DNA from: a virus
Lineage: Duplodnaviria > Heunggongvirae > Uroviricota > Caudoviricetes
Virus record (IMG/VR): IMGVR_UViG_2562617151_000006
Direction: 5' to 3' (one strand)
DNA length: 9,989 nucleotides
Shown piece after piece: positions 1 to 9,989 of the stretch. The notes beneath the pieces were generated by a model that ran no database searches, had not been told where the DNA came from, and was given only the letters and a program-made list of their open reading frames with translations. How positions within the stretch are numbered: position 1 is the stretch's first letter; every line of letters begins with the position of its first letter. The position numbers were made by a program, and so were the translations under genes.

Positions 1-1284
1 TTACAGACTTCTGGAAGGTTGCGCAGCTCTTACAACACGCGGTTGATCTTCCGCAGCGTCTTCCAGCGCACTTAAATCACGGTCTTTCACCTCTGGCATT
101 TTCAGCGCAGAGATTAAACCAATCACTGAATATGCCATGATCATAATGGCGATCGGATACCAGGATTCCGTCATGGTGCAGAAAATACCCGCCAGGATAG
201 GACCAAAACCGGAAGCGATAAGACCACCAATTTCTTTAGAAATAGCCATCCGGGTAAAGCGGTTTTTACAGCCGAACATTTCTGCCATGGTAATGTTTTC
301 CAGAGCAAATAATCCCAGCACCGCACAGTTATGAATCACAATCAGTGCAACCATAATGGTGCTCGGGGCATAGCTTTTATCTACAATGATAGAAAGCATT
401 GGCCATGCCAGCACAATCGCGGAGGTATTCATAATAATATACGGGATCCGGCGACCAATTTTATCGGATAACCAACCAAGGAACGGAATGGTCATAAAGC
501 CGAGAATCGAACTGATCATCAATGCATCTGTTGGAATTGCTTTGTTAAACAATAACGTCTGCACTAAATAGCCTGCAAGGAAAGTCTGAATTAACCCGGA
601 GTTACCCGCCTGACCAAAACGCAGCCCTGTTGCCAGCCAGAAGGATTTGCTCTGGAACATGCTACCAGCAGGTGCAGGTTTTGCTGTCGGTTGGTTACTG
701 TCGTTAACCTTCTCAAAGACCGGGCTTTCTTTCAGATTCATACGCAACCAGATAGCAAAGACCATCACGACAACACTCGCCAGGAACGGTATACGCCATC
801 CCCACGCCAGCAGTTCCTCTTTACTGAGAATGAAGAACATAAAGGCCCAGATTGCCGTTGCGCTCAAGGTTCCGCAGTTAGTTCCCATAGCCACAAATGA
901 GGAGATAATTCCGCGCTTACCTTTTGGCGCATATTCCGCCAGCATCGTACCGGCACCGGAAATTTCCGCACCTGCACCCAACCCCTGAATAATACGCAAC
1001 GTCACCAGCAAGATGGGTGCAAAAACACCAATCTGTGCATAGGTCGGTAACACACCAATTAAGGTGGTACAGATCCCCATCATGGTGATGGTAATAAAGA
1101 GCACTTTTTTACGCCCTATTCTGTCGCCCATTTTGCCGAAAATAAATGCTCCGACAATACGCGCCACATAACCTGCACCGTAGGTTCCCATTGCCAGAAT
1201 TAACGCCATTGCCGTTGATGATTCAGGAAAAAATATTTCATGAAACACTAACGCTGCGCCGAGCGAATATAACTGGAAATCCAT
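1..1284 (-). CDS. ydfJ: MFS metabolite:H+ symporter family transporter (YdfJ-like), complete at the 3' end but apparently lacking about 30 N-terminal residues
   Basis: 427-aa minus-strand ORF with multiple hydrophobic segments and MFS-type motifs (GDRIGRKK after TM2, WGWRIPF mid-protein). The N-terminus MDFQLYSLGAALVFHEIFFP aligns with the W[FY]DF..Y..FFP region that lies about 30 residues into paralogs ShiA/KgtP/ProP (recalled). Stop codon is at window positions 1-3. Confidence 0.85.
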   Translation of the reverse strand: MDFQLYSLGAALVFHEIFFPESSTAMALILAMGTYGAGYVARIVGAFIFGKMGDRIGRKKVLFITITMMGICTTLIGVLPTYAQIGVFAPILLVTLRIIQGLGAGAEISGAGTMLAEYAPKGKRGIISSFVAMGTNCGTLSATAIWAFMFFILSKEELLAWGWRIPFLASVVVMVFAIWLRMNLKESPVFEKVNDSNQPTAKPAPAGSMFQSKSFWLATGLRFGQAGNSGLIQTFLAGYLVQTLLFNKAIPTDALMISSILGFMTIPFLGWLSDKIGRRIPYIIMNTSAIVLAWPMLSIIVDKSYAPSTIMVALIVIHNCAVLGLFALENITMAEMFGCKNRFTRMAISKEIGGLIASGFGPILAGIFCTMTESWYPIAIMIMAYSVIGLISALKMPEVKDRDLSALEDAAEDQPRVVRAAQPSRSL

Positions 1285-1525
1285 AATTCACAGGTGTTTT
1301 TTCCCATCCTGTGGTTTCCTTGGCGTTTTCTAGGTTTTTTCAGATAGTTGCATTTTTTAAAAAGCATCCTAAGTTCGATCTCAGTGTCTATCTGGGGCCC
1401 ATTTCTGTCCCATATATGCCCCAAAAAAACTCCTCAACAGATAAGTAGTTTTTTCATGGAGTTACGCGTAAAATCAATAACGGCTGGAAATCATTCAATA
1501 CTCGCACTATCGAAAAATTTACCAG

Positions 1526-1568
1526 CCAACCGCAGCACGTTCTTGCATAAGGCGTGTCTGCGGTTTTT
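1526..1568 (+). terminator. Candidate intrinsic terminator-like hairpin in the ydfJ-ydfK intergenic region
   Basis: Imperfect stem ccgcagcacg (1530-1539) pairing with cgtgtctgcgg (1553-1563), one bulged base, 13-nt loop, followed by TTTTT (1564-1568). No annotated upstream gene on this strand. Confidence 0.35.
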
Positions 1569-1887
1569 CAACTATTCAGATACATCACTCCCATCACATT
1601 CATTCCTCCACATCAAAGGCATATAGGCTATATCACCTTGATATTTTTCTTCTTCAGATAAAAACTGTTATCTATGTATACTTTTAAACCCAATCCGTGT
1701 AGAGTCTCTGCATAAGATAGTTTGCAGTTGCCACTTCAGCTTGCGCCATAAACCGCCTGATTTTTGCCGCCATCTGTTAGCATTCCTGTATACCTGAAAC
1801 GACAATGTTTATCTACGAACTTTAAGAACACCCAGGATAAAAATTGTCAACTATATCATATATAACACATTACTAATTCGAGGCTAT

Positions 1888-2001
1888 ATGAACAGCATAC
1901 TGATAATCACTTCGCTCCTTATCATATTCAGCATTTTTAGTCATGCTCTAATAAAATTAGGGATTGGCATATCCAATAACCCAGACAAAACCGATGTATA
2001 A
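1888..2001 (+). CDS. Hypothetical 37-aa hydrophobic small protein ([37 protein letters not shown])
   Basis: ATG at 1888 preceded by GAGG (1880-1883), TAA at 1999-2001. One predicted transmembrane helix. Lies 68 bp upstream of ydfK on the same strand. Below the size cutoff of the ORF track. Confidence 0.3.
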
Positions 2002-2069
2002 GTCAACATATCCTGAATCAGACATACAATATCGCAATGAAAATCAATAATATTTTAAGGAATATATTC

Positions 2070-2303
2070 ATGAAATCAAAAGACACCCTAAAGTGGTTCC
2101 CTGCGCAGCTTCCTGAAGTCAGAATTATCCTAGGGGATGCTGTAGTGGAAGTAGCAAAACAGGGAAGACCTATCAATACCAGAACATTGCTTGATTACAT
2201 TGAAGGAAACATAAAGAAAAAATCATGGCTGGATAACAAAGAATTATTACAAACAGCGATATCAGTTCTTAAAGACAACCAAAATTTAAATGGTAAAATG
2301 TAA
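2070..2303 (+). CDS. ydfK: Cold-shock-inducible prophage protein YdfK/YnaE family (77 aa)
   Basis: ORF track 2037-2303. Preferred start is ATG 2070 (MKSKDTLKWF...) because it has an AAGGA Shine-Dalgarno 9 nt upstream, giving 77 aa. Sequence recalled as the YdfK/YnaE family of Qin/Rac prophages. Confidence 0.75.
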   Translation: MKSKDTLKWFPAQLPEVRIILGDAVVEVAKQGRPINTRTLLDYIEGNIKKKSWLDNKELLQTAISVLKDNQNLNGKM

Positions 2304-2619
2304 TATAATAAACTTACTTTTTTATCATTTTTCCACTTTAACAACATTTTGCTCCACTTTTCCACGACCAAACAACTTGAAATCTGGTTAAAATAACACG
2401 CAACACTATTCTTCTTCCTTGAGTCCGCCCGGAACTCGAAAAACAAACCGAGTTAAAGCCATTTTTCACAAAATCGATTTTGGGTCTCACCAAAGTTACG
2501 GGGTTGCATACGCATTCGTTTATTTTCGAACGTGTACATACAAATATGCACAAAAATAATCAAAATTATTTTCTGAGATGCATTATGATATGAACACCAA
2601 TTTCGTATAGAGTCTCACT

Positions 2620-3210
2620 ATGTCTCGAATTTTTGCTTACTGTCGGATATCAACGCTGGATCAGACCACCGAAAATCAACGCCGGGAAATCGAAAGTGCA
2701 GGTTTTAAAATCAAACCTCAGCAAATAATCGAAGAACACATTAGCGGCTCAGCAGCAACCAGTGAGCGTCCTGGTTTTAACCGGTTGCTTGCTCGCCTGA
2801 AATGTGGTGATCAATTGATTGTGACAAAACTGGATCGCCTTGGTTGTAATGCAATGGATATCAGGAAAACAGTGGAACAACTGACCGAAACAGGTATCAG
2901 AGTGCATTGCTTAGCATTGGGGGGCATTGACCTGACCAGTCCAACAGGAAAAATGATGATGCACGTAATTTCAGCAGTCGCTGAATTTGAACGAGACCTT
3001 TTACTTGAACGCACTCATTCCGGGATAGTAAGAGCCCGCGGCGCAGGGAAACGTTTTGGTCGACCACCTGTGTTAAATGAAGAACAGAAACAGGTGGTAT
3101 TCGAACGAATTAAGTCAGGTGTAAGTATAAGTGCCATTGCCCGGGAATTCAAAACCTCGCGGCAAACCATTTTAAGAGCCAAAGCAAAACTTCAGACACC
3201 TGACATATAA
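2620..3210 (+). CDS. pinQ: Serine recombinase, Gin/Hin/Pin-family DNA invertase (196 aa)
   Basis: N-terminal catalytic motif YCRISTLDQ (active-site Ser), resolvase-type catalytic domain and C-terminal HTH ([16 protein letters not shown]). Size and sequence are typical of Pin/Gin invertases. Confidence 0.9.
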
Positions 3211-3307
3211 AAAATAATCTCGGTGTGAGATGCTTTACGTCTTCCAAGCCCCCTTCCTTGCCGTAAATGGAGAGATACATCTAATTATAGAATTTATATG
3301 TTTTACC

Positions 3308-3883
3308 CTACGGCAGTGCTGGCCATTCAATATCCGGTGCAGTTGATGTATCAACACGGTTCAGCAACACCCGATACTTTTTCCAGGCTTCCAGCAACAA
3401 GGTTTCTTCCTCCGTTGCGATCTCCAGATCCACAGCATCCTGAAGCGGCGCTATATGCTCACTGGCTATCTGCATCAGGCTGTTTTTTGTTTCTTCCGCC
3501 TCCCGGATCCGGAACAGTTTTTCTGCTTCCGTATCCTTCACCCAGGCTGTGCCGTTCCACTTCTGATATTCCCCTCCCGGCGATAACCAGGTAACATTTT
3601 CCGGTAACGGACCGAGTTCAGAAATAAATAACGCGTCCCCTGATGCCACGTCATAAACCGTTTTACCCCGATGATCTTCAACGAGATGCCACGATGCCTC
3701 ATCACTGTTGAAAACAGCCACGAAGCCTGCCGGAATATCTGGCGGTGCAATATCGGTACTGTTTGCTGGCAGACCTGTATGAGGCGGAATATATGCGTCA
3801 CCTTCACCAATAAATTCATTAGTTCCGGCCAGCAGATTATAAATTTTTATGGTCCGTGGTTGTTCACTCATTCTGAATGCCAT
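3308..3883 (-). CDS. tfaQ: Tail fibre assembly protein (lambda Tfa-like, 191 aa)
   Basis: 191-aa ORF starting [18 protein letters not shown]..., recalled as near-identical to lambda Tfa. Its ATG overlaps the stop of the upstream stf remnant (TAATG), indicating translational coupling. Confidence 0.9.
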
Positions 3884-4191
3884 TACGCAAGCCTCACAAT
3901 ATAGTTAAATGCGATGTTTTTGACGGTGTTTTCCGCGTTACCAGCAGCGTTAACGGTGATGGTATGTCCATGTGAACCAATCGCAACGGAGTGCGTATGA
4001 GCACCAATACCGACAGTATGTGCGTGTGCACCTGCGCTTGCAGCAGTACCCGATACAGAGTGCGTATGAGCGCCTGCAGAAGAAGTGTTAACACTGTATT
4101 TAGAATAATCAGGTGATCCACTTCCCGGAGCACCACTGGAACCACCTGAAACAAATGTCATCGAATGGGTATGTGCACCGGCTGTCCCCAT
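3883..4191 (-). pseudogene. stfQ: Side tail fibre (Stf) C-terminal remnant, about 100 codons
   Basis: ORF ends ...[30 protein letters not shown], matching the recalled lambda Stf C-terminus. Contains repeated GAHTHS/GAHAHT His-rich motifs. No credible N-terminal part; the frame breaks near 4158-4191. Confidence 0.8.
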
Positions 4192-4445
4192 GCATTTACC
4201 GCCCGGACTGTCAGCCTGTAATTTCCCAGCGCCAGCTGCGTGAAGCGATATGTGGTTTCCGTCGTCCGGGCCGTGCTGACCAACCGCTCACTGCCGTCGT
4301 CCGCTGCCACGGTCAGGCGAAGCATAAAGCTCACCCCCTTCACCACCTTCGGCGTGTCCCAGCGCGCCAGCACCTGGTATTCCCCGCTGTCTGCGGTGAC
4401 TTCTGCGGTCAGGTGCTGAACTGCTGGCGGCGTGACACCATTCAC
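4158..4445 (-). pseudogene. Internal fragment of a lambda J-type tail tip/host specificity gene (FN3-like segment)
   Basis: 95-codon frame with ...[66 protein letters not shown], recalled as an internal segment of lambda gpJ. Starts at a GTG that overlaps the nohA stop (GTGA). Different frame from the stf remnant. No real start or full-length gene. Confidence 0.65.
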
Positions 4446-4987
4446 CGTGCCGCTCTGGTCACCGTCAAAGTGCGCCCCGTTATCAGTTCATCCAGCGCGG
4501 CTGCTTTGTTCATGGCTTTGATGATATCCCGTTTCAGGAAATCAACATGTCGGTTTTCCAGTTCCGGAAAACGCCGCTGCACCGACAGGGGGATCCCGTC
4601 GAGAATACTGGCAATTTCACCTGCGATCCGCGACAGCACGAAAGTACAGAATGCGGTTTCCACCACTTCAGCGGAGTCTCTGGCATTTTTCAGCTCCTGT
4701 GCGTCGGCCTGCGCACGCGTAAGTCGATGGCGTTCGTACTCAATAGTCCCTGGCTGGAGATCTGTCTCGCTGGCCTGCCGCAGTTCTTCAACTTCCCGGC
4801 GCAGCTTTTCGTTCTCAATTTCAGCATCCCTTTCGGCATACCATTTTATGACGGCGGCAGAATCATAAAGCACCTCATTACCCTTGCCACCGCCTCGCAG
4901 AACGGGCATTCCCTGTTCCTGCCAGTTCTGAATGGTACGGATACTCGCACCGAAAATGTCAGCCAGCTGCTTTTTGTTGACTTCCAT
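4442..4987 (-). CDS. nohA: Terminase small subunit, lambda Nu1 homologue (181 aa) with a divergent C-terminal tail
   Basis: MEVNKKQLADIFGASIRTIQNWQEQGMPVLRGGGKGNEVLYD... (winged-HTH DNA-binding N-domain) is recalled as essentially identical to lambda Nu1 until the last 13 residues or so, which diverge at a deletion junction. K-12 synonym nohQ. Confidence 0.9.
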   Translation of the reverse strand: MEVNKKQLADIFGASIRTIQNWQEQGMPVLRGGGKGNEVLYDSAAVIKWYAERDAEIENEKLRREVEELRQASETDLQPGTIEYERHRLTRAQADAQELKNARDSAEVVETAFCTFVLSRIAGEIASILDGIPLSVQRRFPELENRHVDFLKRDIIKAMNKAAALDELITGRTLTVTRAAR

Positions 4988-5230
4988 TGTTCATTCCACG
5001 GACAAAAACAGAGAAAGGAAACGACAAAGGCCAAAAAGCCCGCTTTCAGCACCTGTCGTTTCCTTTCTTTTCAGGGGGTATTTTAAATAAAAACATTAAG
5101 TTACGACGAAGAAGAACGGAAACACCTTAAACCGGAAAATTTTCATAAATAGCGAAAACCCGCGAGGTCGCCGCCCCGTAACCTGTCGGATCACCGGAAA
5201 GGACCCGTAAAGTGATAATGATTATCATCT
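4988..5230 (-). other. Lambda-type cohesive end site (cosB with R1/R2/R3 and I1, cosN, cosQ-side flank)
   Basis: Reverse complement of 5165-5176 is GGGCGGCGACCT, the lambda 12-nt cohesive end. Flanks read (rc) ...CCGACAGGTTACG|GGGCGGCGACCTCGCGGGTTTTCGCTATTTATGAAAATTTTCCGG..., matching the recalled lambda ends. Nu1-binding R elements at 5012-5026, 5053-5067 and 5110-5126 (CGTTTCC cores); AT-rich IHF-like segment at 5078-5100. Confidence 0.8.
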
Positions 5231-5375
5231 ACATATCACAACGTGCGTGGAGGCCATCAAACCACGTCAAATAATCAATTATGACGCAGGTATCGTATTA
5301 ATTGATCTGCATCAACTTAACGTAAAAACAACTTCAGACAATACAAATCAGCGACACTGAATACGGGGCAACCTC

Positions 5376-5609
5376 ATGTCAACGAAGAACAGAACCCGCA
5401 GAACAACAACCCGCAACATCCGCTTTCCTAACCAAATGATTGAACAAATTAACATCGCTCTTGAGCAAAAAGGGTCCGGGAATTTCTCAGCCTGGGTCAT
5501 TGAAGCCTGCCGCCGGAGACTGTGCTCAGAAAAAAGAGTTTCTTCTGAAGCAAACAAAGAAAAGAGTGACATTACTGAATTGCTCAGAAAACAGGTCAGA
5601 CCAGATTGA
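5376..5609 (+). CDS. ynfO: Small ribbon-helix-helix-like protein (YnfO/YlcI family, DUF3950), 77 aa
   Basis: Basic N-tail, then a beta-strand-like RNIRFP followed by two predicted helices (NQMIEQINIALEQ; NFSAWVIEACRRRL), the typical RHH pattern. Position between cos and the lysis cassette matches the recalled Qin ynfO. Confidence 0.7.
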   Translation: MSTKNRTRRTTTRNIRFPNQMIEQINIALEQKGSGNFSAWVIEACRRRLCSEKRVSSEANKEKSDITELLRKQVRPD

Positions 5610-5666
5610 AGCAATTTAGATAATCGTGCAGACTACGCCCCCTCATATCACATGGAAGGTTTATCT

Positions 5667-6077
5667 ATGGATCAGGTAGTCATTTTTAAACAAATATTTG
5701 ATAAAGTTCGAAACGATTTAAACTATCAATGGTTTTATTCTGAGCTAAAACGTCACAATGTCTCACATTACATTTACTATTTAGCCACAGAGAATGTTCA
5801 TATTGTATTAAAAAATGATAATACAGTGTTATTAAAGGGCCTAAAAAACATTGTGTCTGTCAAATTTTCAAAGGATAGGCATCTTATAGAAACGACCTCT
5901 AATAAGCTGAAATCCAGAGAGATCACATTTCAGGAATACAGAAGAAACCTTGCTAAAGCAGGAGTTTTTCGGTGGGTTACAAATATCCACGAACAAAAAA
6001 GATATTACTATACCTTTGATAATTCATTACTATTTACTGAAAGCATCCAGAAAACTACACAGATCTTACCACGCTAA
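5667..6077 (+). CDS. ydfO: DUF1398 family protein (YdfO/YbcV-like), 136 aa
   Basis: ORF track 5652-6077. Preferred start is ATG 5667 ([10 protein letters not shown]...) with GGAAGG 7 nt upstream. Lies 57 bp downstream of ynfO on the same strand. Recalled as YdfO. Confidence 0.8.
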
Positions 6078-6228
6078 ACCATAACGTCCGGCTTCTCTCA
6101 CTCCTGAGCCGGACTGCATTGGTTTAATAAAAACCATCAACAATTGTGATTTAGATATTCGGAACCATTCAAATATAACAAAACCCCGTAAAAACGAGGT
6201 TTATGGATAAATTTTATTATTGAATACA

Positions 6229-6402
6229 TCAGATTAAATTAATCTTGACATCATAGCTTTCAAGACCCGTCATTTTTTCCCGTGCGGTAAACTGAATACT
6301 GGTAACTTCTTTCCCGGTCTTTTTCTTAAGTTCAATAATTTTTTTTGTTATATATTCAGAAATATCTGCTTCTGCTTTTGTTTTTAAGTTTTCAATATTC
6401 AT
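6229..6402 (-). CDS. gnsB: GnsB, small protein (57 aa), multicopy suppressor of secG null (Gns family)
   Basis: Minus-strand ORF MNIENLKTKAEADISEYITKKIIELKKKTGKEVTSIQFTAREKMTGLESYDVKINLI, translated by hand. Below the ORF track size cutoff. Recalled as GnsA/GnsB family. Confidence 0.75.
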   Translation of the reverse strand: MNIENLKTKAEADISEYITKKIIELKKKTGKEVTSIQFTAREKMTGLESYDVKINLI

Positions 6403-6573
6403 CATTTCCTCTTTTAGTCTGTTATGACTTTCCAGTTACACAGTAAGTCGATTATATGGTGCAAACGTGTAAAAGATAAGATGAAACATCGCAATAATCA
6501 ACATACGATAGTCTAAATTTTACACAAACAGACAAAGAGAATTTTCCTGAATTATCAATGCAATAGCATCAAA

Positions 6574-6729
6574 TCAACTCAAGAGCCTTATTGCTGCTTC
6601 CAGAATTTCTTCTGAAGTAACATGTCGATCCGCGGCTACATAAATGACTTTATGATCTCCGGTCAGAGATGGAAACCCTGCGGCCATTACAGTAAGGTGT
6701 GTTTTTTCGCCATTTGGATATTCACGCAT
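6574..6729 (-). CDS. ynfN: Small cold-shock-inducible prophage protein YnfN (51 aa from the preferred start)
   Basis: ORF track gives 6574-6846 (90 codons). Preferred start is ATG 6727-6729 (MREYPNGEKTHLTV...) with GGAG upstream. A terminator T-tract overlaps the far-upstream start at 6846, arguing against the long form. Start is uncertain. Confidence 0.55.
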   Translation of the reverse strand: MREYPNGEKTHLTVMAAGFPSLTGDHKVIYVAADRHVTSEEILEAAIRLLS

Positions 6730-6845
6730 GATGGTGTTAACTCCAGTCATCGCTGGCACTACCACTGCTGGTTCAGAGTTAAAAAAAACTATGATTTTTT
6801 TCATGATGTTACCGTAGTATGTGAGTATCCATCGAATAGACACCA

Positions 6846-6868
6846 AGCAAAAAAGCTCCCGAAGGAGC
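6846..6868 (-). terminator. Rho-independent terminator downstream of cspI (minus strand)
   Basis: Stem GCTCC (6855-6859), loop CGAA (6860-6863), stem GGAGC (6864-6868). On the minus strand it is followed by a TTTTTTGC run (complement of 6846-6854). Confidence 0.6.
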
Positions 6869-7075
6869 CTTCATTTTCACTTTTTTAAATCCAACGACAG
6901 ACGGCTGGCATTTAAGTATTGTGAAATATTATCAAATGTAATCATCATTGATTTACAAAAGATACATTTTGCCCCGAAAGGATTCATGTCAGAAACATCA
7001 AAAGATGATGTTCTATACTGGGAACCATGACAACACGGGCATCTAAAGTGAATATGGTTTGTAATATTGTCTACC

Positions 7076-7288
7076 TCAAAGCGCCACTACATGAACAGCG
7101 GCAGGACCTTTAGGTCCGTTCTCAATACCAAATTCAACTTCCTGATTCTCAGTTAATGTTTTGAAATCGTTGCTCTGAATTGCTGAGAAATGGACAAACA
7201 CATCTTTGCTGCCATCTTTCGGCGTGATGAAACCAAAACCTTTTTCAGGGTTAAACCATTTCACTAAACCAGTCATTTTGTTAGACAT
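7076..7288 (-). CDS. cspI: Cold shock protein, CspA family (70 aa)
   Basis: [38 protein letters not shown]... carries the RNP1 (KGFGFI) and RNP2 (VFVHF) motifs of the cold-shock domain. AAGG Shine-Dalgarno upstream. Recalled as CspI of Qin. Confidence 0.9.
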
Positions 7289-7430
7289 AATTATTACCTT
7301 TTGAAGAAATTAGCCCTTGGGCAGAATGGTCCGAAAAAAAATATCAGAGAGAAAAACCAACAAGGAAATCTCAAGAGGTACAAATAATAAAATTATAACA
7401 ATGACTGCTTCAGATAAATTTGTAACAAAC
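7289..7430 (-). promoter_or_regulatory. Putative cspI promoter and long 5' UTR
   Basis: A perfect TATAAT on the minus strand (complement of 7392-7397) lies about 105 nt upstream of the cspI ATG, in an AT-rich region. CspA-family genes are known to have long structured 5' UTRs. Exact transcription start and any cold-box are not determined. Confidence 0.4.
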
Positions 7431-7650
7431 CAGAACACCATTAACGCATGATTAACCACCCATAGCAAGGATTACTTTTGTAAAGAAAAACACAGCAATG
7501 AAAGAATAGCTTTATTTATTAATAAAACGTGTCATTCTGATTAAGACCTTTTATCTTACCCTTAAGATTTCAGGAATTTTGGCTCATGGAAGAGTCCTTT
7601 TTATTTAAATTTTACATTCCGCGATGTAAATGTTCCGATTTAATATTACC

Positions 7651-8674
<1,024 letters not shown>

Positions 8675-8678
<4 letters not shown>

Positions 8679-8986
8679 AGATATTTATGATGAGGACGCT
8701 CGTGCTTATTGGCAGGATTTTCAATCTTAAAGGAGTACTGATGCTGCAGATAAGACTCAACTTTTTCTGACAATTTTTCTGCTACTTCCAGGAAGACTTG
8801 CCGGACGCTCCTTCTGGCTGCTGCCTCATAAAACTCCAGCGCAGCTCCTTCAACACGGTCCATGGCGACATCCAGGTCAAAAATTTCACCGTCAAAGCGT
8901 TCTTTGTCCTGTAAGGCTACAGTTACCGTAACTTTATTCTCAAAATTACGGACTCCTTTCACAACCAGTTCATAGTCTTGAGTCAT
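8675..8986 (-). CDS. ydfR: DUF1327 family protein of unknown function, located between holin and endolysin genes (103 aa)
   Basis: 103-aa ORF with no transmembrane segment, acidic and helical. Recalled as YdfR. Tightly packed: 4 bp after essQ, and its stop overlaps the rrrQ start. Confidence 0.8.
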
Positions 8987-8990
8987 TGGA

Positions 8991-9206
8991 TTACTCTCCT
9001 CTCGCAGCCTTACGCCTGTCTTCTTTAATCTTGAAATAAAGATTTGTCAGATACGTCAGCAGGCCAAAAACCAGGCTACCCAGCACACCGATTGCAGCCC
9101 ACTGTGACGGAGTTACTTTATCGAGTAACTGCAATGCCCAGAAACCAGCATTACCCGCCGATGTGCCATAGGCAACACCTGTTGTTAACTTATCCATTGA
9201 TTTCAT
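8991..9206 (-). CDS. essQ: Class II holin, phage 21 S21-like pinholin with dual-start motif (71 aa)
   Basis: [28 protein letters not shown]...[18 protein letters not shown] has two transmembrane domains, an MKSM dual start (Met1/Met4) and a charged C-terminus, matching the recalled S21 pinholin. The track's extension to 9281 adds an unlikely 25-aa N-terminal arm. Confidence 0.85.
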
Positions 9207-9425
9207 ATCCTCACCCCGATGTACACGGATGGTGCAATATGTTTGAAAAGATCGGAGTCTACGGGGTAGTTTTGACAGCACACGTTGTTCTCAACGGCGC
9301 TAAAAAAACATACACATTAAAAATGTGGGTAATTATTTTGAAAGAAAGTCATATATAAAATAATAATACGAGAAATGTTTTCATATTTAGTGTACTGTAT
9401 ACGGCCATTTATACAGGAAAAGCCT

Positions 9426-9596
9426 ATGTCAGAACGTAAAAACTCAAAATCACGCCGTAATTATCTCGTTAAATGTTCCTGCCCAAACTGCACCCAAGAG
9501 TCAGAACACAGTTTTTCAAGAGTACAAAAAGGTGCCCTTTTGATCTGCCCTCATTGCAACAAAGTATTCCAGACAAATCTTAAAGCTGTAGCCTGA
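9426..9596 (+). CDS. ynfU: Small zinc-ribbon protein (CxxC-x18-CxxC), 56 aa; possibly YnfU
   Basis: ATG 9426 with AGGAAA Shine-Dalgarno 6-7 nt upstream. MSERKNSKSRRNYLVKCSCPNCTQ...ICPHCNKVF has four Cys in two CxxC knuckles. Gene name is from uncertain recall. Confidence 0.5.
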   Translation: MSERKNSKSRRNYLVKCSCPNCTQESEHSFSRVQKGALLICPHCNKVFQTNLKAVA

Positions 9597-9655
9597 TTGA
9601 TTTTATTAGTAACAAGTATTTTTTATATTTTAATAATATATTTAAAGCAGATAAT

Positions 9656-9679
9656 AAAAAACCCGCCTGAGCGGGTTTG
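9656..9679. terminator. Bidirectional-looking intrinsic terminator hairpin
   Basis: AAAAACCCGC-CTGA-GCGGGTTT: a 6-8 bp GC-rich stem with 4-nt loop, flanked by an A-tract upstream and T-tract downstream. The T-run is stronger on the minus strand (TTTTTATTAT). Confidence 0.6.
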
Positions 9680-9744
9680 AGATTGTGGTGCTTTTTGTGG
9701 GAGTCATCCACTTACGCACTTTGTTTTGCCATGCCAGCAGTTAG

Positions 9745-9989
<245 letters not shown>

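Follow-up and report, generated by a model that had tools for sequence, protein, structure and literature searches.

Genomic Setting of the cos–nohA Locus

The stretch of DNA analyzed here (9,989 nt in length, hereafter the window) carries a lambda-type cos site next to nohA (4442–4987, minus strand), which encodes a 181-aa homolog of Nu1, the small terminase subunit, and was assigned from the list of open reading frames, its translation, Pfam and RefSeq. Judged by its gene order and sequence, the locus is what is left of the cos–nohA region of Qin, a lambdoid cryptic prophage of E. coli, and the allele is not that of K-12. The gene order is that of Qin, with insertion in ydfJ followed by ydfK, pinQ and tfaQ, and further along nohA, cos, ynfO, ydfO, gnsB, cspI and the lysis genes. 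Both this order and near-identity of sequence are common to the Qin prophage of MG1655 and many other E. coli genomes. A RefSeq genome differs from window positions 1–9744 at only three positions and annotates the gene as "nohA: DNA-packaging protein". The locus itself is not new, since all records of E. coli K-12 annotate it as nohA and place it in cryptic prophage Qin.

The nohA–cos locus of K-12 MG1655 (b1548) shares with the window its chromosomal place and the order ydfJ, ydfK, pinQ, tfaQ, nohA, cos, ynfO, ydfO. Across window positions 5125–9744 a single indel is the only difference between the two, and cosQ, cosN and I2 of the MG1655 Qin are identical to those of the window. In contrast, there are seven differences between the cosB haplotypes (lambda 53–176), and between cos and the end of the prophage the two sequences have diverged by approximately 2%. 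The alleles also differ in where Nu1 is interrupted, as the window passes from lambda position 703 into gene J, whereas K-12 Qin departs at approximately lambda 719 into other sequence and stf, giving NohA proteins of 181 and 189 aa with different tails. Among 5426 complete genomes, the window-type Nu1 junction occurs in 89 and the K-12-type junction in 372.

From position 9745 the window continues into an IS5-family element with 86% identity to the IS5 of K-12, which is absent at the same place in MG1655 and FORC064. A second cos-like 12-mer, GGCCGGCGACCT (9963–9974, plus strand), matches the cohesive-end sequence at 11 of 12 bases but was rejected, as it lies inside the IS5-family transposase reading frame, with cosQ and cosB context both absent.

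Sequence and Subsites of cos

The lambda cohesive-end dodecamer, GGGCGGCGACCT, has one exact match in the window (5165–5176, minus strand), with approximately 0.01 matches expected by chance. The initial annotation had described this match on the complement strand, with lambda-like flanks, three R elements and an IHF-like site in the correct arrangement, and this description was upheld, with all subsites lying at lambda spacing. Alignment of window positions 5538..4475 (minus strand) to lambda 48141–48502 plus 1–703 gave 98.2% identity, lambda positions 48166–48502 and 1–52 being unchanged in the window.

The cosN subsite (5163–5178, minus strand), comprising the 12-nt cohesive-end sequence at 5165–5176 and 2 bp of flank on each side, is the same as that of lambda. 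So too is the cosQ heptamer GGGTCCT (5200–5206, minus strand), in both its sequence and its distance to cosN; we take it to correspond to lambda 48473–48479. The bent spacer I2 (5127–5159, minus strand; lambda bp 18–50), which is required for packaging initiation (PMC4856287), is identical to lambda without an indel. Beyond it, the order R3-I1-R2(inverted)-R1 and the spacing between cosN and cosB are as in lambda. R3 (5112–5127, minus strand; lambda 50–65) matches at 15 of 16 positions, the sole change being C53T, while R2, in inverted orientation (5053–5068, minus strand; lambda 109–124), matches at all 16. R1 (5012–5027, minus strand; lambda 151–166) matches at 15 of 16, with C151T at its outermost base, and R1 and R2 were also found independently as a 15-nt perfect inverted repeat. 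Within I1, the best match to the IHF consensus is a predicted site, AATAAAAACATTA (5086–5098, plus strand), with one mismatch to WATCAANNNNTTR and the same sequence as lambda 79–91; it sits between R3 and R2, as does the published IHF site of lambda cosB. The window cos is, on its sequence, a complete lambda-type packaging site (cosQ-cosN-I2-R3-I1-R2-R1).

It could be argued that C53T in R3, C151T in R1 and a shortened R2–R1 spacer have left this cos unable to work with lambda-type terminases, given that lambda has a C not only at position 53 of R3 but at the same base of R1 and R2, and that R3 is the most critical of the three (PMC9026076). We consider this unlikely. C53T lies two bp outside the R3 contact core mapped in that work (bp 55–63), and the core, including its critical bp 56, 58, and 59, is unchanged in the window. 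C53T was also found in phages 2H10, PhiR70_1 and Stx1_112808 and in prophage DLP12, and 2H10 and PhiR70_1, both isolated phages, have C151T and the same spacer length as well; over the whole of cosB, 2H10 differs from the window at one position. The R2–R1 spacer of the window is 1 bp shorter than that of lambda, but the shorter length occurs in every other aligned sequence, so that lambda itself is the outlier. Since all five cosB differences from lambda were seen in the alignment in isolated lambda-like phages, the site is probably competent for terminase. The phages sharing C53T may have matching changes in Nu1.

NohA and the Deletion Junction

Residues 1–169 of NohA are those of lambda Nu1 except for A75T and L132I, and over the same residues K-12 NohA differs from the window protein only by K48R. 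The whole N-terminal winged helix-turn-helix domain has been kept, as had been claimed from the sequence; residues 1–68 are 100% identical to PDB 1J9I, and the recognition helix (17–24) and wing (31–39), as these elements are defined in PMC9026076, are unchanged with respect to Nu1. NohA covers positions 1–164 of the 164 positions of the Pfam profile PF07471 (Phage_Nu1; E 4e-101; 336 bits, cut-off 30), and its structure matches are PDB 1J9I and 6HN7. Its end is different. Eleven of the 12 residues from 170 to 181 differ from Nu1, G171 alone being kept, so that NohA lacks the native terminus of the C-terminal region, the part of lambda Nu1 that binds gpA. The parts of Nu1 for DNA binding and oligomerization are thus kept in NohA, which ends in a foreign 12-residue tail.

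The replacement of the tail coincides with a deletion junction, in agreement with the initial annotation. Homology to lambda Nu1 stops at 4475 and homology to lambda J begins at 4484, the two meeting in a 10-bp microhomology, GATA(A/C)CGGGG (4475–4484, minus strand), between Nu1 (lambda 694–703) and J (lambda 17302–17311). What follows nohA is an internal fragment of the gene for tail-tip protein J (4178–4484, minus strand), which corresponds to lambda 17302–17608 with 91.9% identity by blastn, matches Pfam Ig_J and is annotated in RefSeq as a pseudogene, "J-related protein". The gpA gene had been reported as missing, and indeed none was found after nohA by blastn, Pfam or RefSeq annotation, nor is there a TerL-like ORF in the ORF list of the window. 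An internal deletion at the microhomology fused Nu1 codon 170–171 to the middle of J, taking out the gene for the large terminase subunit together with every head gene and most of the tail genes. The window allele, K-12 Qin and DLP12 have undergone independent deletions that each spared cos and nearly all of Nu1, which could hint at selection rather than passive decay.

Upstream Sites and Expression of nohA

Two regulatory sites lie upstream of nohA. Just beyond cosQ is a Fur box, GATAATGATTATCATC (5214–5229), also present in lambda, which is the published nohA -233 site and was positive in gel-shift assays (PMC2189734). Between cos and ynfO is an FNR site, TTGAT-N4-ATCAA (5297–5320), for which both a ChIP-chip peak and EMSA have been published (PMC1802558).

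The initial annotation had further suggested that a NohA able to bind DNA but defective for gpA might compete for cosB on incoming lambdoid genomes. More broadly, NohA (putatively unable to hold gpA) or the orphan cos might lower the yield of lambda-type phages through occupancy of cosB, poisoning of terminase oligomers or diversion into abortive packaging. The intact DNA-binding domain, the fully covered Nu1 profile and the replacement of the last 12 residues of the gpA-binding region are in keeping with this, and the Rpp proteins of phage-inducible chromosomal islands (PICIs) show that packaging of the lambda type can be redirected by a protein that binds TerS (PDB 6HN7). Against it, the cloned upstream region of nohA/nohB has low promoter activity (PMC1802558), a promoter scan between cos and nohA detected no sigma-70-like site, and a terminator-like hairpin is present on the late-transcript strand (6202–6181). 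NohA production is therefore probably very low, and the protein has no demonstrated role. Moreover, K-12 is the standard permissive host of lambda, which grows normally there, and it carries a near-identical NohA together with full-length NohD. We regard interference of this kind as highly improbable, and the suggestion of competition by NohA found no support.

Packaging Direction and the Search for a Terminal cos

Packaging from the window cos is directed towards nohA, that is, leftward to lower window coordinates; it had been called rightward, which holds on the lambda map only. In this direction, marRAB lies 16–17 kb and hipBA 44–45 kb downstream. When a lambda-type cos is cut, its cosB end remains protected, whereas its cosQ end becomes exposed (PMC4856287). 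Termination of lambda packaging requires a downstream cosQ-cosN-I2, and a search of the 90 kb that lie ahead in the direction of packaging found no second cosQ plus cosN, the lone cosN accompanied by cosQ being the site itself. The candidates for a terminal cos in these 90 kb were chance-level cosN matches with two mismatches, lacking cosQ or flank similarity, and were rejected. Given this and the cos-to-cos rule of lambda, the site is predicted to be cut, to stimulate recombination and to give one-ended, abortive packaging of the docL type rather than mature transducing particles.

These results bear on the proposal in the initial annotation that a superinfecting or co-resident lambdoid terminase could cut the site and mobilize adjacent genes. 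Cutting in trans is plausible, as the cosB variants occur in isolated phages and many E. coli genomes have a lambda-type Nu1 gene adjoining one for a large terminase subunit; efficient mobilization or transduction is not expected, there being no terminal cos within 90 kb. A stronger form of the proposal would hold that the orphan cos has been kept because helper lambdoid phages package the adjoining chromosome (ydfJ through marRAB and lsr to hipBA, within one lambda headful) into other cells, as a cos-phage counterpart of lateral transduction. Besides the intact sequence of cos, the frequency of lambda-type terminases and the position of marRAB and hipBA, this would fit with a highly divergent tract between two near-identical chromosomes, which stops 40–50 bp from cosN. 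However, lambda needs a terminal cosQ plus cosN to complete a head, and docL-type particles were reportedly defective in the work of Sternberg and Weisberg in 1975 and of Sternberg in 1986 if their protruding DNA had not been trimmed. The divergent tract also spans only approximately 4 kb and ends at the prophage end, the host DNA beyond showing no raised divergence. Any cos phage with a linear genome should show a loss of linkage precisely at cos, and the tract boundary is thus not specific evidence. We consider a retained start point for mobilization to be quite unlikely.

Two further readings of the divergent tract were rejected. Its boundary at cos was not accepted as proof of in situ cutting, because in the linear phage genome the sequences flanking cosN lie at opposite ends, and any crossover in the phage state would separate them. 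Simple gene conversion from the Rac paralog was discarded since, with Rac as outgroup, derived changes occur in runs in both lineages, indicating a mosaic history without a single donor.

Interpretation of the Orphan cos

The most likely reading of the sequence is that the locus is a passive relic which a terminase of lambda specificity would still recognize in trans. Taken as a whole, the interpretation of a Qin cos–nohA relic that is passive but recognizable in trans, and at which cutting would lead to abortive one-ended packaging, is given a probability of roughly 0.8. The terminase would come from a phage infecting the cell or from a co-resident prophage upon induction and, together with IHF, would bind cosB and nick cosN. 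It would then stay on the cosB/nohA end, leaving the cosQ end open to nucleases and recombination, and might translocate towards nohA, J′, tfaQ, pinQ, ydfK, ydfJ and onward. As there is no second cos downstream, packaging would end in an abortive, one-ended head of the docL type and not in a mature transducing particle.

We consider it improbable that the orphan cos is in regular use, that is, cut often enough where a phage of lambda specificity is present to give recombination a fixed point of entry at which alleles of the adjoining prophage arm are replaced, and to let one-ended packaging begin (approximately 48 kb of chromosome, with marRAB, the lsr operon and hipBA), or else to serve as a terminase sink that lowers phage yield. 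If it were, the three deletions that keep cos and nearly all of Nu1 while losing gpA (window allele, K-12 Qin and DLP12), as well as the divergent tract ending at cos, would be signs of use or retention and not of chance. The locus offers a clean, ready-made test case for a little-measured question, the fate of a solitary cos in the chromosome on encounter with the terminase of a cos phage, which might be breakage of the chromosome, a hot spot of recombination, abortive packaging or transduction at a low rate. The outcome would bear on whether cos phages are capable of something like lateral transduction and on the exchange of arms between defective prophages and active phages.

The functional consequences of such loci had been called poorly explored. 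This is partly so. For the Qin locus, a search of the accessible literature returned nothing on cutting or packaging at its cos nor on NohA function, only upstream Fur and FNR binding and work on DLP12. Among related loci, the DLP12 nohD–cos has been studied with lambda and packaging of Sp4 in trans through a shared cos has been reported.

Comparison with Known Systems

Besides Qin itself, a counterpart within E. coli K-12 is the nohD–cos locus of DLP12, which, like the window, has a lambda-type cos and a Nu1 homolog without a working large subunit. The two have C53T, A73G and T102C in common. Unlike the window, DLP12 retains a full-length Nu1 (181 aa) and a 309-bp fragment of gene A (aaaD), and its haplotype on the cosQ side is different. 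Recombinants between lambda and DLP12 have their junctions clustered at cos, and in lambda the DLP12 gene nohD can take the place of nu1.

The outcome predicted for the window is that of lambda docL, in which packaging proceeds from a chromosomal cos into host DNA without a terminal cos. Such particles were reportedly obtained from excision-defective lambda prophages by Little and Gottesman in 1971, Sternberg and Weisberg in 1975 and Sternberg in 1986. In docL, however, cos belongs to an induced, replicating prophage with its own terminase, whereas terminase would reach the window cos in trans and the locus is unamplified.

The cos–rpp module of PICIs resembles the window in having a chromosomal cosQ and cosN with an adjacent gene for a small winged-helix protein and in depending on the lambda-like terminase of a helper. 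It has no lambda-type cosB and Rpp is not a Nu1 ortholog, while in the window cosB is complete and NohA is Nu1 itself. PICIs also excise, replicate and are packaging-sized, whereas working excision and replication functions were not seen in the Qin remnant. Membership of the locus in the PICIs was rejected, given its complete cosB, its Nu1 protein and its neighbors, which are Qin remnants.

A precedent for packaging in trans is found in E. coli O157 Sakai, where prophage Sp4, in which nu1 is disrupted, is packaged, most likely by the terminase of Sp14 through a near-identical cos. Here, as is proposed for the window, a prophage without an intact terminase is served through the cos type of a co-resident prophage. 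Sp4 still undergoes excision and amplification and its genome is of unit length, none of which applies to the Qin remnant.

Identity of the Locus

The cos site and the Nu1 homologue nohA belong to the known nohA-cos locus of the cryptic E. coli prophage Qin, and the allele is of a known kind, new only in the particulars of its junction, tail and cosB haplotype. The gene order is as in Qin: ydfJ' (1–1284), ydfK, pinQ, tfaQ, fragments of J and stf (J' and stf'), nohA, cos, ynfO, ydfO, gnsB, cspI, rzpQ, rrrQ, ydfR, and essQ. Identity to K-12 MG1655 is 99.8% over window 4475–9744 and 98.5% over 1–4071, and the same comparison found no K-12 counterpart at the corresponding place for 4072–4474 and 9745–9989. 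The allele is not that of K-12. The genome of FORC 064 differs from window 1–9744 at 3 positions and is, as are other genomes, much closer than MG1655; in its RefSeq annotation the gene is named ‘nohA: DNA-packaging protein’ and a ‘J-related’ pseudogene comes next.

A number of other features were recorded in the region. Matches above the gathering score were obtained for the Rfam families IS009 (RF02111; 3342–3540, complement strand, inside tfaQ) and cspA thermoregulator (RF01766; 7049–7434, complement strand, ahead of cspI). In the window, the gnsB frame (6229–6405, complement strand) is open over 58 codons; its FORC 064 counterpart has one extra T at about window 6338, for which RefSeq calls the gene frameshifted. 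The left end of an IS5-family element (9745–9989; 86% identical to K-12 IS5 over 247 bp) follows ynfU and is absent at the corresponding place in MG1655 and FORC 064. A second cos-like dodecamer (9963–9974, plus strand, 11/12) lies inside the transposase reading frame of this element and was dismissed as a chance resemblance.

Sequence and Competence of the cos Site

The lambda cohesive-end dodecamer, GGGCGGCGACCT, has a single exact match in the window (5165–5176, complement strand), where about 0.01 matches would be expected by chance. It is part of a long lambda-like alignment and not a lone word, as lambda 48141–48502 followed by 1–703 aligns with window 5538 to 4475 (complement strand) at 98.2% identity. 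The window and lambda are identical between lambda 48166 and bp 52, across the cohesive end, and this span includes cosQ (GGGTCCT, 5200–5206), cosN (the dodecamer) and the entire I2 spacer (5127–5159; defined as in PMC4856287). The R sites of cosB, likewise on the complement strand, were placed by the site definitions of Murialdo and Feiss (PMC9026076). R2 (5053–5068) is identical to lambda, R3 (5112–5127) has one change, C53T, and R1 (5012–5027) has one change at its outermost base, C151T; R1 and R2 also emerged from an independent search, as an inverted repeat of 15 nt without mismatches. The best match to the IHF consensus, between R3 and R2 (5086–5098), is identical to lambda 79–91. The C53T change is outside the mapped contact core of R3 (bp 55–63) and off the critical bp 56, 58, and 59. 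With A73G, T102C and an R2–R1 spacer one base shorter, cosB differs from lambda in five places. The region has every sequence feature of a lambda-type cos, and the initial annotation, which had described such a site with R elements and an IHF-like site and had called for this alignment, was borne out.

The region was also aligned with those of K-12 Qin, K-12 DLP12 and seven isolated lambda-like phages. All five cosB differences recur in isolated phages: C53T in 2H10, PhiR70_1 and an Stx1 phage (and in DLP12), C151T in 2H10 and PhiR70_1, and the shorter spacer in every aligned sequence except lambda, which is one base longer. Phage 2H10 differs from the window cosB at one position. On these grounds, the window cos falls inside the variation seen naturally among lambda-type cos sites that work, and it is probably competent.

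NohA and the Deletion Junction

The nohA frame (4442–4987, complement strand) encodes 181 amino acids, and residues 1–169 are those of lambda Nu1, the small terminase subunit, except for A75T and L132I. The solved DNA-binding domain (PDB 1J9I) is matched without change by residues 1–68, confirming the proposal that this domain had been kept, and the Pfam Phage_Nu1 profile is covered end to end (positions 1–164 of 164). The native C-terminal end and an adjacent gene A are lacking: 11 of the last 12 residues are unlike Nu1, whose C-terminal region is the gpA-binding part. Nu1 homology ends at window 4475 (lambda 703), 8 bp short of the start of gene A, and homology to lambda J (17302–17608, 91.9%) begins at 4484; the junction is therefore a 10-bp microhomology, GATA(A/C)CGGGG. 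The equivalent of approximately 16.6 kb, from A through two thirds of J, was lost here, and at a second junction the J fragment meets the end of a side tail fiber gene. The replacement of the C-terminus at a deletion junction and the absence of a gene for gpA, the large terminase subunit, were thus both correctly anticipated; a J fragment follows nohA, and no large terminase gene was found in the window from the list of open reading frames or the RefSeq annotation.

Cutting in trans and Packaging

Cutting of the window cos in trans by a lambdoid terminase is plausible, since the site is intact and lambda-type pairs of Nu1 and large subunit are common in E. coli. The 3' end of Nu1 was matched in 4118 of 5426 genomes, and Nu1 adjoining a large subunit gene is common. 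There are precedents: in crosses of lambda with DLP12, half of the sequenced recombinant junctions adjoined cos and the authors proposed breaks at both cos sites; DLP12 nu1 is functional in lambda; and the O157 Sakai prophage Sp4 is packaged despite a disrupted nu1, most likely because the Sp14 terminase acts on it via a near-identical cos.

Terminase remains attached to the cosB end and begins packaging there (PMC4856287), so the first DNA into the head would be nohA, followed by J', tfaQ, pinQ, ydfK and ydfJ. Packaging would thus run toward lower window coordinates, away from the Qin lysis genes, and not rightward as first proposed. Lambda packaging terminates only at a downstream cosQ–cosN–I2. 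In FORC 064, 90 kb in the packaging direction held no cosN (≤2 mismatches) with cosQ or flank similarity, and by this rule the expected product would be a one-ended, docL-type head and not a mature transducing particle. The suggestion of cos-dependent transduction is partly supported: the cutting step is plausible, and efficient transduction of adjacent genes is not expected. Heads of the docL type were reportedly described from excision-defective lambda prophages by Sternberg and Weisberg in 1975 and Sternberg in 1986. One headful from the window cos would include, at 16–45 kb from cos in the packaging direction on FORC 064, dcp, dgcZ, marRAB (16–17 kb), the lsr operon, and hipBA (44–45 kb).

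Expression of nohA and Interference

The proposal that NohA interferes with incoming lambdoid genomes is unsupported. On the coding strand, no sigma-70-like site was found in the interval from cos to nohA, and a terminator-like hairpin is present upstream of nohA on that strand (6202–6181). K-12, the standard host of lambda, carries a NohA identical to that of the window over residues 1–169 except for K48R, and also the full-length DLP12 homologue NohD. When the nohA/nohB upstream fragment was cloned, its promoter activity was low. The Rpp proteins of PICIs are TerS-binding proteins able to redirect packaging, and interference by NohA under forced expression is possible.

Two regulator sites lie beyond the cosQ side of cos, and both are also found in lambda. 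A Fur box, GATAATGATTATCATC (5214–5229), identical in lambda, lies 8 bp outside cosQ, within the interval 4442–5260 of the initial annotation but unmentioned there, and is the published ‘nohA -233’ site (22.3 bits, gel-shift positive; Chen et al., 2007, PMC2189734). A perfect FNR half-site pair, TTGAT-N4-ATCAA, is found between cos and ynfO (5297–5320); in K-12 this site, assigned to nohA/nohB, is a published ChIP-chip peak supported by EMSA, and the weak promoter changed only marginally in activity when fnr was deleted (PMC1802558).

Haplotype Exchange at cos

When MG1655 and FORC 064 were compared over 102 kb, 71 of the 107 differences were concentrated in approximately 4 kb (MG1655 1,632,354–1,636,504; window ~1350–5124). 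This tract, limited just inside the Qin left end and at lambda bp 53/54 in R3, 40–50 bp from cosN, has a divergence of about 2% against about 0.04% in its flanks, and carries different deletions in the two chromosomes. With Rac as outgroup, derived changes occur in runs in both lineages, indicating a mosaic tract. In an alignment of lambda 48430–200 (window 4977–5250, loci L008–L015), all six combinations of two cosQ-side and three cosB-side haplotypes were seen among lambda, Qin alleles, DLP12 and isolated phages, with the exchange interval (lambda 48487 to bp 53) including cosN; reassortment across cosN is therefore frequent. The tract and haplotypes fit, weakly and indirectly, with cos-stimulated recombination. 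A linear cos genome predicts the same pattern, because the two sides of cosN are opposite genome ends.

Comparison with Other Deleted cos Loci

Three deletion endpoints were distinguished. In the window, lambda 703 is joined to J 17302; in K-12 Qin the endpoint is at about lambda 719 (~7848–7856 of its locus, L001), with a NohA of 189 amino acids that follows Nu1 to residue 176 before different DNA; and in DLP12 it is at about lambda 1019, with full Nu1 and 309 bp of gene A kept (5355–5663 of its locus, L015). These deletions are independent, and each keeps cos and nearly all of Nu1 while eliminating the functional part of gene A. At the Nu1/A boundary, two of the endpoints lie no more than 16 bp apart. 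Among 5426 complete E. coli genomes, the window-type junction was counted in 89 and the K-12 type in 372. The locus is not a member of the PICI cos-rpp module; as a lone chromosomal cos it keeps some value as a handy model for asking what happens when such a site meets a matching terminase.
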